Notes under the pieces: model-generated
Seen by the model: the letters and a program-made list of their open reading frames with translations, nothing else
What the model was told of the DNA's origin: nothing
Database searches by the model: none
Program-made: the position numbers and the translations under genes
Assembly: GCA_964016885.1 (NCBI GenBank)
Contig: OZ024743.1
Coordinates: 201,872,001-201,936,000 of the forward strand
Reading direction: 5' to 3'
Source of the DNA: Eledone cirrhosa
Taxonomy: Eukaryota
Length of the DNA: 64,000 bases
Shown: positions 478 through 60,950 of the stretch, piece by piece
Layout of the letters: the number at the start of each line of letters is the position of its first letter
How positions within the stretch are numbered: the first letter of the stretch is position 1

Positions 478-805
478 AATTATATATATATATATATATA
501 TATATATATATAATTAAACGGAAAAAATGAAACGAAATTTCATTTCCCACTCTTAGTACGGCTGTTACTTAAATATAAGTATGTACACGTACATGTACAC
601 ACACACATATATATATATATATATATATATATATATATATATATATATATATATATATATATATATATATATATATATAATGTAGGAGGTGAGTTTTATT
701 GTAGCACAATAAAGTAATTCAAATATCGAATAAGTAGCACTTTACAGTTTGTAGGACTGGAGTATAAATAATATAAGATCGAAAGATGGTTAAAAGAGTT
801 CCAAG

Positions 806-876
806 TATTTTATTATGCGCATTTCAAAAACAAATATCATCATGAGATGATATCTGCGTTTTCATCAGATAAAATA
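806..876 (-). ncRNA. Type I hammerhead ribozyme in inverted pLTR
   Basis: Reverse complement of the HHR at 4705-4775. Confidence 0.85.
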
Positions 877-1917
877 GGGATACAAGATATGAAGCTTAAA
901 AAACACTTGTGAATAGTGAAGTTTTAAATCAACATATGAAAAATAATTTAAGATTGATGTGTGATATTGGGAAAAAGTGAGTGGGGTGTTGGAAAAGGTA
1001 AGGAATAGGAGGAGATGAGAGTAAAGAATGGTGGGGTAGGAGTATAAGAAGGAAGGATGAGAGAGGAGGAGAGATGGGTAATAGAGAGAGAGAGAGAGAT
1101 AGCCTTTACAACTGAGAAAAATATATATTGTCTCACAGAGAGAAGTTAAAAAGCCGTTGGAAGATAATAGATAATTTAAAAGAATTTGAAATTAAAAGTT
1201 AATGAGGTTTATGCATAAAGAGAAAAAGGGATTAAGAATAATATTAAATTAAGGTTTGTATATTGAAGGGTTTAATACTACGTGCGAGGAAAAAGAAATT
1301 ATTAATATGTATTATTAAAATAAAAATATTAATGTTATTAAGGATATAATGTGAAAAGAAGTAAAAGAATGAATGAGTTGTGAATTTAGAGGAATTAGTT
1401 AGTGTTTAAGTTTGTTTTTATGTAATCTAATATATGTGCGTAATATATGTACGTAAATAGTTTGTTTAAAAATGAGCGTAGAAAGCAAAGATGAAAAGAA
1501 TGTTTAAGGAAGAAAAATATCTAACATCAAAAAATATATATGTTTACGAAATATTTTCTAATGGTAATAATATAATATATTAAAGGAATTAGTTAGGGTT
1601 TAAGTTTGTTTTTATGTAAAAGTCAAACGAGCATGAAAGGAAGAAATAAGGAATTTAAGGAAGAAAAATCTAACGTAAAAAAAAGGTTTATGTTTACGAA
1701 GGACTATTAAAGGTAATACTATAATGTATTTAAAAAAAAAAATTTATGGCCAATGATATGAAGAAAGATGGAAGAATGGATAATGTTGTGGTGAGTAATA
1801 ATAAGAATTGAGAAGTAGTTAGGAAGAAAAAGTTCAGATTAGAGGTTAGAAATTAGAAAGAAAAGAGGAAGAAAGGAAAGTGATAAAGATGAATGATATA
1901 GAATGAGTAACATCTGA

Positions 1918-2699
1918 AGTAATTGGCTGGTTCAACAACCTGAATAAGAAAAACAAACAAAAATTTATTCAATTTGATATTGCCAGCTACTATTCTTCTA
2001 TTTCGCCTTCACTTCTCAACAATTCTCTATCTTTCGCATTTATATATTCTGACACCACCACAGATGAACTTCACCTCATTCTCACCGCAAGAAAAATCAT
2101 CTTAGAATTCAACAATGAATACTTCCAACAACTTTGATATCACAATGGCTGCTTCCGATTCATCGCAATTGACTGATTTGATTGGTATTTTTATTTTGAA
2201 TTCTTTAAATCGGAAAATTCCTCAACTTCGCGGTGGAATTTATCGTGACGATGGACTCTTTACTATCTTAAATTGCAATTTAGTTAACCTTAATATTATT
2301 AAGAACAATATACGTGATCTCTTTGAGCAACATAACCTTAAAATCGAATTTGATAACAACGTCAAACTAGCTAACTTCTTGGATATATCCCTTAATCTTG
2401 ATACTGTCCTATATTACCCTTACCATAAAAACAATGAGAATCTAAATTATGTTAATTTTAAATCTAACCACCCCACTAACATTAAAAATGCTACACTCAG
2501 TAATATTGGAAAAAGAATATCAAACCTATCCTCTAATAAAAATATCTTTGATGCTAACGCTAATTACTATAATAATGCGCTTTCTAAAGCCGGTTATCCT
2601 GATAAAATTAAATACAGTAAAGAAACCAATCCTAGAAGGTCTTACAGTAAAATAATTAATTATGATCATTCCAAAAACTTAAATAAAAGACCTAGATAA
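1918..2699 (+). pseudogene. PLE reverse transcriptase remnant (frameshifted)
   Basis: FIQFDIASYYSSIS (motif A), FDITMAASDS (motif B), IYRDDG (motif C), NFLDI, SNHP thumb motif. Confidence 0.9.
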
Positions 2700-2980
2700 A
2701 AAAAAATAATATTCCTAAACTATTCTTTAGGGCTTTAGATAAATGCTTCCCTCCCTCACATATCTATAGTAAAATCTTTAACAAACATACAATAAAATTT
2801 TCCTATTCCACCTCCTCCAACATCTCTAACATTATCTCTAAACACAACAATGAAATATTAAATATTAAATCACATCCTTCCAACACTGAGCGTCATAATA
2901 ATAGCAGTAGTACTCCCCACGTCATTGTTAACTCTAGGCTAGATTCTGCAAACTCAAATACGACGTAAAACGTAACTTCG

Positions 2981-56934: not shown

Positions 56935-59135
56935 TATATATATATATATATATATATATATATGTATAATATGTATATATATATATATATATATATATAT
57001 ATATATATATATATATGTATATATATATATATGTATATATATATATATGTATATATGTATATATATATATATATGTATATATATATATATATATATATAT
57101 ATATATATATATATATGTATATATATATATATATGTATATATATATACATGTATATATATATATATGTATATATATATATATAGATATATGTATATATAT
57201 ATGTATATATATATATATGTATATATATATATATATATATATGTATATATATATATATGTATATATATATATATGTATATATATATATATATGTATATAT
57301 ATATATATATATGTATATATATATATATATATATGTATATATATATATATATATATATATATATATATGTATATATATGTATATGTATATATGTATATAT
57401 ATATATGTATATATATATGTGTAAGTATGTATGTATACGTACATACATATATGTATACAGACGTACAGTAGCATGTATATATATATATATATATATATAT
57501 ATATATATATATATACATACAGGCACACATATATATATGCACGTATCAGTTTACCGAAAATTTATTATAATGTTCGCTTCGTTCGTTTGCAAACAAACAA
57601 ACAGCCTGATTTACGCCGTACAGTGTTCAGGCAACCACGTCACCATTTTGTTCAACACTGGCACAGGAACGATGTACTAGTTTCAAGCTTTTTAGCTATC
57701 GTCAACACCGTATACCTTTCTGCCAGATGGCTGAACGTTCGAAAGTATATACTTTCCTTATGAAAATTAACGGCTGAGCACGAGGTGATGAATTCATCAC
57801 CTCGTGCTTCGCCAGCCAAACGTGGTAAGCGCGTGTTGAACAGAAATAACAGTCCAACACGCACAATTGGTGATGAATTCATCTTTCTGTGTGAATGTTG
57901 GCAAATAGTGTTTGTGGCATTTAATCGCAATCTCTCGCTGATGAAGCCCAGGATTATCTGTTACAAACACACTCAGGGCGAAACAGATTAGGGATAATCT
58001 GTCCGAGAGATATAATGGTTATTGAGGCGGTTTGTATTATTTGATAATATATTTTTATTTTCATTTCATCATTCTGTCTGTTTCTTGGTTAAATATTTCA
58101 AGCATATGTGGTTTTTCAACCCTTGTAATTTTAGACACACGGTTTACTGTGTTTCTTACTATATATTATATATATATATATATATATATGTATATATATA
58201 TATGAGATATATATATATATATGTATATATATATATGTATATATATATGTATATATATATATATATATGTATATATATATATGTATATGTATATATATAT
58301 GTATATATATATGTGTATATATATATACGCATATATATATATGTATATATATACACATGTATATATATATGTATATATATATGTATATATATATGTATAT
58401 ATGTATATATATATATATGTATCTATATATATATATACATATATTTATATACATATATGTATATATATATATATACATGTATATATATATGTGTGTATAT
58501 ATATATATGTATATATATATATATGTACATATATATATATATATATGTATATATATATATGTATATATATATGTATATATATACATATATATATATATAT
58601 ATATATATATATATATATATATATATGTATATTTATATATATATGTATATATATATATGTATATATATATATATATATATATATATGTACATATATATGT
58701 ATATATATATGTATATATGTATATGTACATATGTATATATATATGTACATATATATATATATATATATATATACATATATATATACACATATATATATAT
58801 ATGTATATATATAAATATATATATGTAAATATATATATGTATATATATATATATGTATATATATACATATATGTAAATATATATATGTATATATATATAT
58901 ATATGTATATATATATATACATATATAGATACATATATATATATATACATATATACATATATATATACATATATATATACATATATATATATACATATAT
59001 ATATACATGTATATAAATACATATATATATATGCGTATATATATATACATATATATATATATATATACATATATATATATATACATATACATATATATAT
59101 ATATATACATATATATATATATACATATATATTCA
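56935..59135. repeat. Long interrupted (TA)n/(TATG) microsatellites (56935-57420, 58160-59135); similar tracts throughout the window
   Basis: Direct observation. Confidence 0.9.
57422..57780 (-). repeat. Family-A retrozyme-like copy; HHR 57669-57711 with C3>U change
   Basis: Homologous to 28375-28655 and 28230-28270; core reads TTGACGA. Confidence 0.8.
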
Positions 59136-59136
59136 T

Positions 59137-59375
59137 AGTTTCAAGTTTATTAGCTATCATCAGCAACCTATACCTACCTGCCAGATTGTTGAACGTATAT
59201 ACTTACCTAATGTATATTAACGGTTGAGAAGCCCAATTTGCATATCGAGTGGGTTAATCGGCCGGGTGCACCTAAAACGATAAACGAAAAAAATGAAACG
59301 AAATTTCATTTCCCACTCTTAGTACGGCTGTTACTAAGAGTGGGAAATGAAATTTCGTTTCATTTTTTCCGTTTA
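59137..59375. repeat. Family-A fragment in divergent fold-back arrangement
   Basis: Minus arm 59137-59330, short plus arm 59331-59375; (TA)n on both sides. Confidence 0.8.
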
Positions 59376-59499
59376 TATATATATATGTATATATATGTAT
59401 ATATATTTATATATATATATATGTATATATATATATATATATATATATATATATATATATATATATATATATATATATATATATATATATATATATATA

Positions 59500-60950
59500 A
59501 AATTTCAGGTTATCAATAATGTAGTGATAATATATCGTTACGTTAGAGATGAACAGCGTACGTGCAGGTTTGCTCAACGAGTATAAATTATATTCAGGAG
59601 AAAATGTAGAAAGGATGAATATAAAATGAAAGTGCTTTTGTTAAAAAAGGAATCTATTAGGTATTGACATATGTTTCTGTAACAGACCGAATACCTATGT
59701 ATCGCTGCTTGCGTAATCATATAATGTTAGCAAGTATTCGATAGCAAATGTATAATCAGTTGTCACTTCTTCAGAGATTTTGGATAAACTGGATAAAATC
59801 AGAAAAATTGAAGTATTTATATTAGTAAAAGAGGAAGGAACAGAGGGGATAGTATATGACAGATGGTAAAATAATTTACTGCTAAACAAATATATAATGG
59901 GTTTCAAATGAGAATCCCATGAGTAAATCTAAATAAGAATTTTGGGAGTGCCAATTTTAATCTCTACTTGACCAACTGGACAGTGGACAGGGCTGGTCAT
60001 TTGGTGCAGTAGTATTAATTATAAAGTGTCAATTGGGGAAGGGGTAGATTTCGATTGCTACTAAATAACATCAATGCTAGTAGCCAGCTGGTATATGCAT
60101 TAGGGAATTGAATCAAGAAATCAGAAATCTCATTTTATCTATAGCAGTTTGTATTAAAAGGTAAATAATAGAAGAGTTGATAGAATTAAGACTAATAAAG
60201 AATGTTCATATCTATTTTGACAATTAAACGAGGATAAAGACAGGCGTTCAATCCTGGTAGTATTTATAATATGAAAATGTAGATTTTAAGCGATGGTTAC
60301 AGTATAACGATCGCTCTATTCTGTTATTTAATAAAATGTTTTTGGATTTCATAATACAAAATAATTCTACATTACATAATTTACAAAATTCCTGTCCATG
60401 GCGAGATTGGGGGGCAACCGCTATTATATCCCATTTTAGGTGAAATTGTTGGTTATTTTCACGCAGCTGCCAAGCCTTGTCTGCGAGTGTTGTTACATAA
60501 CGCTGGTTTTCATGTTTTATCGAGTAACGATGTCTATAAAGGCGTGACTGCACCAAATGACCAGCCCTGTCCACTGTCCAGTTGGTCAAGTAGAGATTAA
60601 AATTGGCACTCCCAAAATTCTTATTTAGATTTACTCATGGGATTCTCATTTGAAACCCATTATATACTTGTTTAGCAGTAAATTATTTTACCATCTGTCA
60701 TATACTATCCCCTCTGTTCCTTCCTCTTTTACTAATATAAATACTTCAATTTTTCTGATTTTATCCAGTTTATCCAAAATCTCTGAAGAAGTGACAACTG
60801 ATTATACATTTGCTATCGAATACTTGCTAACATTATATGATTACGCAAGCAGCGATACATAGGTATTCGGTCTGTTACAGAAACATATGTCAATACCTAA
60901 TAGATTCCTTTTTTAACAAAAGCACTTTCATTTTATATTCATCCTTTCTA
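59500..60950 (-). mobile_element. Fourth Naiad-type PLE fragment (EN C-terminus 60248-60546) with inverted pLTR
   Basis: SRLYRHRYS..TTLADKAWQL..CKLCNVE..CNHR; 59607-60009 is inverted at 60547-60950; (TA)n flanks. Confidence 0.83.

Follow-up and report, generated by a model that had tools for sequence, protein, structure and literature searches.

The route by which Penelope-like elements (PLEs) integrate, and the reason why their inverted repeats carry a tail on one side only, is an open question in the field. The closest described systems are the PLEs of the Hydra clade, for which Craig et al. 2021 (PMC8557442) report a C-terminal GIY-YIG endonuclease (EN), a hammerhead ribozyme (HHR) within the pseudo-long terminal repeat (pLTR), insertion into (TA)n, and an inverted, 5'-truncated copy with a tail of 30–40 bp at one end only, on either side. 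Features of this EN are a CxCX5C linker, the absence of CCHH, and CxxC and CxH motifs beside conserved E and N residues. Here we compare these and other systems with a group of HHR-bearing insertions in a 64,000-nt stretch of Eledone cirrhosa DNA (assembly GCA_964016885.1, contig OZ024743.1, positions 201,872,001 to 201,936,000 of the forward strand)—hereafter the window—and with related loci from metagenome contigs, in which a hairpin that commonly occurs twice between ribozyme and start codon lies next to most of the readable insertion junctions.

The sole in vitro system is the Poseidon element PAc of Anolis (Frangieh et al. 2024, PMC11167929), in which both target strands are cut and extended and the tail is the sequence between two internal start sites of the reverse transcriptase (RT); the two sites were found, their determinant was not. 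PAc shares with the picture drawn below two start sites downstream of the HHR, an AT-rich target, cutting of both strands and a predicted dimer, but it belongs to another clade, its starts lie within the open reading frame (ORF) in one AC-rich stem-loop, and the accessible parts of that paper report neither a duplicated hairpin nor a model of inverted arms or of long/short pairing. The words 'hairpin' and 'stem-loop' were likewise not found in the main text or text supplement of PMC8557442. Solo palindromes and a tail that is optional on one inverted pLTR, as seen in the window, have precedents in opposite-strand minimal HHR pairs 100–700 bp apart (PMC4209133) and in the solo or inverted pLTRs of Adineta, which suffice in cis for mobilisation in trans (PMC3846280); in the available text of these two papers, by contrast, end points are not tied to RNA structure. 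Finally, non-LTR retrozymes consist of tandem low-GC units with a type I HHR each, and PLEs have been proposed as movers of the metazoan ones from co-occurrence and phylogeny (PMC7229834; bioRxiv 10.64898/2026.07.22.740005). The word 'inverted' was not found in PMC7229834, and inverted arrays, fixed end points and TA flanks do not occur in the accessible portions of the preprint.

For PLEs, both the inverted layout and the idea of two sites are thus largely known. The points that are new relative to the literature searched—most subscription papers and older PLE reviews lay outside its reach—are a twin-hairpin rule, no description of which was found there, and an end signature of retrozymes. 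A further point of comparison is the twin priming of L1, where two primers from opposite target strands act on one RNA and leave an inversion with a microhomology joint; the second L1 primer anneals at varying internal positions and yields non-overlapping arms, whereas in the window the two start points are constant and each arm repeats the sequence of the other.

Unequal arm pairs and twin hairpins

With microsatellites masked, self-BLAST of the window returned an inverted arm pair at each of ten loci (numbered 1 to 10 from left to right), within a few bases of the divergent pairs that an earlier note on this DNA had listed. The arms face outward throughout and are unequal in reach. The (TA)n flanks noted before were also recovered: (TA)4 or longer lies within 10 nt of 19 of the 20 outer ends, as against 357 of 17,244 background positions (2.1%), the exception being the right end of locus 3 at 29215, and at the seven PLE-type loci (1, 2, 4, 6, 7, 8 and 10) all 14 ends lie in (TA)n. 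At these seven the longer arm exceeds the shorter by a tail of 77–123 nt, in keeping with the previous estimate of about 80–120 nt and longer than the 30–40 bp described for the Hydra clade (PMC8557442). Loci 1 and 2, two insertions of one family, have both end points in common; that the ends lie on opposite sides, as had also been pointed out, is uninformative for a palindrome. Their arms differ at 1 of 168 nt within one insertion and at 13–15 of 168 between insertions. The proposed rule that each insertion pairs a long with a short end is obeyed at nine of the ten loci and fails at locus 9, which combines a long end with a third end point. A motif scan placed intact HHRs on the outward-facing strand of both arms in loci 1, 2, 3, 5, 6, 7 and 10; locus 8 keeps the 3' half only, the left arm of locus 9 stops in the core, and locus 4 gave no match with one mismatch allowed. 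A search with Rfam at gathering scores returned no match, hammerheads included.

The sequence basis for these end points was sought in relatives—the best 79 of 349 loci from a scan of metagenome contigs, with scans of viral and prokaryote genome contigs finding none. In 53 regions upstream of a recognisable start codon, examined between ribozyme and ATG, the motif GAGYRC occurs twice in 38, three times in one, once in ten and not at all in four; at least two copies are thus present in 39 of 53 regions, as against 8 of 5,300 shuffles, and in 37 of the 39 the copies are spaced 56–74 nt apart. The motif forms part of a bulged hairpin, GCTC…GAGCAC, in which a lower GCTC/GAGC stem of 4 bp is separated from an upper stem by a bulge of 2 nt on the 3' side. 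Above the bulge, the first pair is Watson–Crick in 65 of 67 non-redundant hairpins (45 C–G, 20 T–A; 0 of 10,000 permutations) and the second in 44 of 67, where 21 were expected—statistics of covariation that ignore relatedness among loci.

The relatives sit in short-read contigs, in which single junctions can be read and long/short pairs cannot. Their junction map comprises 38 rows, 27 of which were counted after dropping eight matches to the upstream region of L075 (not a proper unit, with TA runs and HHR cross-matches), a mirror row (L015 853), an internal indel (L040 2603) and a junction of L048 that duplicates that of L047. No fewer than 21 of the 27 junctions fall 0–12 nt 5' of a hairpin, 11 of them at hairpin 1 and 10 at hairpin 2, the latter all within 0–6 nt (binomial P at most 3e-8, even when a quarter of the region is counted as on-site). 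The inverted arm of L015 ends in TA 4 nt before hairpin 2, that is, at the long end.

Hairpin 1 also recurs in the window. A position weight matrix (PWM) trained on the relatives only finds its best match 6–14 nt into each of the seven PLE-type tails, with p values of 0.003, 0.007, 0.023, 0.05, 0.066, 0.19 and 0.40. A strict structural descriptor gave nine matches in the 128 kb of both strands, against 3–10 in shuffles, and matched within 13 nt of the short junction at five of the seven loci (2, 4, 6, 7 and 8); the tails of the other two, loci 1 and 10, contain degenerate or partial copies.

On balance, and with reservations, we favour the reading that in Hydra-clade insertions and their non-coding passengers the element's protein recognises a hairpin present twice in the RNA and starts one cDNA immediately 5' of each copy. 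Twin hairpins as the positions of two copying reactions would explain the one-sided tail. The suggestion in the earlier note of two defined start sites per RNA is supported, and their likely cis-determinant here is the twin hairpin. With a duplicated hairpin from which both junction positions can be predicted in dozens of Hydra families, the question of the tail becomes directly testable; the hairpin also provides a boundary rule for annotating the clade.

Several observations weigh against this reading. The PWM signal is weak for loci 1 (p 0.066), 10 (0.19) and 4 (0.40), and the strict descriptor was written after the window tails had been inspected. These tails end before the position of hairpin 2, so that the window families display hairpin 1 only; moreover, they exceed most hairpin spacings in the relatives (77–123 against 56–74 nt), and in locus 6 a partial second motif is already included in the tail, whose end follows it directly instead of preceding it. 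Among the relatives, six of the 27 junctions lie elsewhere (two of them are inversion joints and not outer ends), the on-site placement of L003 and L028 was decided by eye, on variant hairpins, and many full-length copies with flanks show no inverted arm. Locus 9 and the relative L046 have an end inside the HHR. The statement on pairing rests on ten hand-picked loci, all selected as inverted; HHR/PLE insertions that lack a matching inverted arm are also present in the window, at 53680–55185 and 515–594.

By their motifs, the coding copies of the window are assigned to the Hydra clade. The ORF of a full-length relative maps by tblastn onto loci 1, 6 and 10 and onto 54719–55111; in locus 1 it places the RT at 1910–2881 and the EN at 3062–3508, followed by a stop, so that the EN is C-terminal. 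The four EN fragments have a linker of the CxCX5C type (CNCPVRTKC in locus 1, CNCMQSNNC in locus 6, one Cys altered in a third copy) and no CCHH, with CxxC in three and CxH in two of the four near the end. RWK and DKT motifs, which in the Hydra clade sit in the N-terminal part, would lie beyond the truncation points of the window copies; in the alignment summary the nearest full-length relatives have RMRWK and ADKT. A profile built from the four fragments retrieved 7,942 proteins at E 0.001 or better, and the full-length proteins found with it have the EN at the C-terminus and RWK-like and DKT motifs. A word-indexed search for longer EN homologues found none, and Pfam gave no family for five window PLE fragments and only sub-threshold noise for full-length relatives. 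Naiads, to which the elements had earlier been linked, have an N-terminal EN and lack canonical HHRs (PMC8557442); that identity is ruled out by the C-terminal EN and the HHRs of the window copies, which are of Hydra type.

Some relatives show other arrangements. L056 (981–3378) and L058 (about 3018–5566, read by eye) are full-length, exactly unit-length and uninverted, the outcome expected from a single lap around a circular RNA. In both, as well as in L014 (5' start at 965) and L050 (5' start at about 3168, read by eye), the start of the sense strand follows TA and coincides with the site next to the hairpin at which elements of this kind terminate. In addition, L034 (2936–5552) and L003 (2609–2988), two different HHR-bearing elements, stand face to face across a single (TA)n tract.

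Retrozyme families A and B

Loci 3, 5 and 9 belong to two families whose sequence characters class them with the non-LTR retrozymes: tandem units of about 440 nt (family A) and 467 nt (family B), a GC content of 34–35% (below the 45% that bounds the class), type I HHRs, and no ORF of 120 amino acids or more in loci 3 or 5. Locus 3 (family A, 27886–29215) is inverted at 28653–28657 and carries two consecutive HHR-bearing units in its left arm; its long end, on the left, lies in (TA)n and its short end, on the right, outside it. Locus 5 (family B, 30042–38842) comprises 7.2 units on the minus and 11.6 on the plus strand, which meet out of phase at 33421–33425, and contains 18 complete type I HHRs with a 6-bp stem I and only two internal mismatches in 8.8 kb; its short end is at 30042 and its long end at 38842, with a tail of 72 nt (38771–38842). 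Locus 9 (family A, 59137–59373) has a 4-nt microhomology joint at 59332–59335 and a right arm that ends at the long site.

The two families are homologous (alignment score 151, against a shuffle maximum of 63), and seven of the eight retrozyme ends in the window, with the mirror pair 478/515 entered once, occupy just two homologous sites (P 6.5e-5, with TA/AT positions as the null). The eighth, the left end of locus 9, stops 3 nt short of the HHR cleavage site. The family B sites recur elsewhere: when contigs of public runs were aligned to one family B unit (1,066 contigs from run X1, 34 from run X4), TA-type loose ends were found at 38306 (four contigs) and 38375 (twelve contigs) in X1 and at 38375 (one contig) in X4, while the window's own ends map to 38303 and 38375. 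These are three of nine loose ends listed on family B, the other six not being of TA type, with 35 more beyond the nine. Family B of X1 differs from that of the window at fixed sites, and its contigs therefore do not stem from the array of locus 5. Two raw-read runs gave no reads on family B, and no RNA run was among the sequencing runs listed as carriers, which has no bearing on expression. In their fixed ends, TA target and inversion, the arrays add the evidence of an insertion signature for PLE-type mobilisation.

There is a real, if minor, chance that the arrays arose otherwise than by the Hydra reaction—through another PLE clade as mover, or through expansion in place by unequal crossing-over—which would be compatible with hairpin priming of the PLEs proper. 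Neither family A nor family B showed the Hydra hairpin (PWM p 0.26–0.81, no match to the strict descriptor, relaxed matches being uninformative at a background of 58%), and RNAalifold and RNAfold gave other stems and no twin motif for the retrozyme tails. No strand-change joint was seen among the matches listed for the 1,066 X1 contigs on family B, a weak negative in that contigs drop rare forms; both of these results tell against our reading as applied to the arrays. Moreover, the accessible part of the retrozyme preprint (10.64898/2026.07.22.740005) discusses local amplification, and the window holds a second kind of PLE fragment at 45310–46950, a decayed element with the motifs LPKIHKP..GRPIVS and VY.L.C..C...YVGQT. 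We take these motifs to be Neptune/Poseidon-like, and the element is a candidate mover of the retrozymes; a Pfam search of the 45–47 kb fragment gave no family. Against these alternatives stand the multiple copies on both sides of the joint of locus 5, its two internal mismatches in 8.8 kb and its ends at the two recurring TA junctions. Expansion in place would have had to hit both arms very recently. The earlier proposal that coding PLEs and retrozyme arrays use the same machinery holds for their architecture but is not supported at the level of the protein, given the undetected hairpin.

The left end of locus 9 (59137) and an end of L046 (2571) both lie inside HHR stem III, at distances of 3 and about 8 nt before the cleavage site, and may mark a third site of priming close to the end of the cleaved RNA.

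Proposed priming at two sites and competing accounts of the tail

Under priming at two hairpins, the protein would bind each hairpin in the element RNA and both strands of the self-complementary (TA)n would be nicked, a few UA bases assisting the priming. Two cDNAs would be primed from nicks on opposite target strands, each just 5' of one hairpin, and the tail would be the stretch between the start site of one hairpin and that of the next. Both cDNAs would usually be copied from one RNA, which would call for strand displacement; they would halt at variable points and join head to head through 2–6 nt of microhomology. If both halted early, a solo palindrome would result. With a retrozyme RNA as template, circular or multimeric, both reactions would continue and leave arrays on either side of the inversion. 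Where the parent sequence is known, the joints in the window have 6 nt (locus 2), 2 nt with an imperfect extension (locus 5) and 4 nt (locus 9) of microhomology, and that of locus 3 has a short templated repeat. A more ambitious version, which we put forward tentatively and would not rate at even chances, sees the tail as a ruler encoded in the RNA: the twin hairpins would dock two RT–EN protomers, one per strand of the (TA)n break, so that every inverted insertion has a long and a short arm, ribozyme-made circles yield bidirectional retrozyme arrays, one lap gives unit-length inserts, and two RNAs are occasionally joined.

The main rival, which we consider unlikely yet credible, places the decision at the DNA level: the hairpins would be recognised in cDNA or target DNA, and the ends would be cut sites of the EN. 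EN-mediated resolution is the source of the tail deemed most likely in PMC8557442, PMC11167929 cites earlier work in which the tail is needed for EN recognition, and covariation cannot tell RNA from single-stranded DNA. By contrast, the in vitro RT start sites, albeit in another clade, coincide with the tail boundaries (PMC11167929), and in the sense strand the junctions are found 5' to each hairpin, at AU-rich bases that match TA primers.

Somewhat less probable still is a single priming event followed by fold-back, in which the cDNA snaps back and is copied and the second end lies where the copy stops. The near-symmetric centres of the solo palindromes (loci 2, 4, 7 and 8) and the near identity of the arms would suit this account, as would loci 6 and 10, where the long end is on the ORF-bearing arm and the arm that extends further 5' also bears the tail. 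In locus 1, however, the long end is on the inverted arm, and the tail sits on the arm with the shorter inner reach; that arm therefore cannot be a copy of the other, the tail being missing from the would-be template—a single case. Short and long ends are equally frequent among the relatives' junctions (11 and 10), and two window loci, 57400–58160 and 61028–62734, join arms from different families. Pure fold-back was rejected as a general rule. The two-family loci fit two independent primings, although nested insertions or deletions could also explain them.

A scheme without defined sites, in which UA microhomology alone or later encroachment by expanding (TA)n determines the ends, is very improbable: all ends do overlap the unit by 1–7 TA-like nt, but the internal TA runs of 10–11 nt in unit A are unused as 3' ends, and the two-bin distribution of seven of eight retrozyme ends (P 6.5e-5), together with junctions that track the hairpin across many families, led us to reject this account. 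An artefact of assembly or library (fold-back reads, collapsed repeats) is scarcely credible and was rejected as well, for while the 467-nt array is near-perfectly identical and its copy number may be unreliable, the joints are asymmetric in phase, the arms of older loci have diverged to 88–98% identity, and the same end points recur in other runs, in contigs that carry a family B with fixed differences.

Individual loci and neighbouring insertions

Locus 1 (680–4810) is a 5'-truncated, frameshifted Hydra-clade PLE with remnants of RT and GIY-YIG EN. Its inverted arm (680–1911, sense on the minus strand) bears the long end, with a tail from 680 to about 763–771, and its direct arm (1910–4810, plus strand) holds the RT and EN remnants and the short end; the HHRs lie at 868–814 (minus) and 4713–4767 (plus). 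A degenerate copy of hairpin 1 at the start of the tail (737–763, minus) has a G>A change in the lower stem, the PWM match lying 8 nt into the tail. Locus 2 (11571–11993), a solo palindrome of the same family centred on CATATG near 11735, has its short end on the left and its long end on the right, with a tail at about 11902–11993, HHRs at 11668–11614 (minus) and 11803–11857 (plus), and the bulged hairpin 1 at 11910–11939 (plus), at the short junction.

The remaining solo palindromes are loci 4, 7 and 8. Locus 4 (29569–29964) is centred near 29826 and lacks an intact HHR, with a tail at 29569–29688 (sense minus) in which hairpin 1 starts at 29676 (minus). Locus 7 (55221–55685) is centred near 55498 and has a tail at 55221–55310, hairpin 1 from 55303 (minus) and HHRs at 55409 (minus) and 55587 (plus). 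The short locus 8 (56773–56932) has its centre at the HHR GAAAC (about 56892), its tail at 56773–56852 and hairpin 1 from 56844 (minus).

Two further Hydra PLEs lie on the minus strand. Locus 6 (39806–43466) has an EN remnant at 43054–42374, a direct arm with the long end (tail 39806–39925, hairpin 1 from 39920, minus) and an inverted short arm at 43301–43466; its tail contains a perfect 26-nt tandem duplication at 39824–39883. Locus 10 (59501–60948) has an EN remnant at 60565–60263, its long end on the left with a tail at 59501–59608 that includes a partial hairpin, an inverted short arm at 60547–60948, and HHRs at 59774 (minus) and 60783 (plus).

Beyond the ten loci, the insertion at 57400–58160 joins a family A arm (sense minus, short end in TA) through a 30-nt palindrome (57778–57807) to a different HHR family on the plus strand, which has an HHR at 57938–58003 with an 8-bp stem I and ends in TA; it is a possible two-RNA insertion. 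A second possible two-family pair lies at 61028–62734, where a 997-nt tandem HHR family (minus) is joined at 62581 to a 152-nt arm (plus) with the ribozyme remnant GAAATGCGCATC, both arms running outward into (TA)n. At 400–594, two family A long ends stand face to face across (TA)16 in a 99% palindrome with shared extra junction bases, which more probably reflects fold-back duplication around the TA tract than a pair of insertions. At 53680–55185 (minus), part of a Hydra EN together with the 3' region is flanked by TA on either side, with a degenerate HHR-like motif near the 3' end. The decayed ORFs at 7500–10400, 13400–16400, 21900–22500 and 49500–53200 we presume to be two LINE-type RTs, a mariner transposase and a Helitron. 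Finally, a degenerate 2-kb tandem repeat (46955–49040) directly follows the decayed PLE of the other type.

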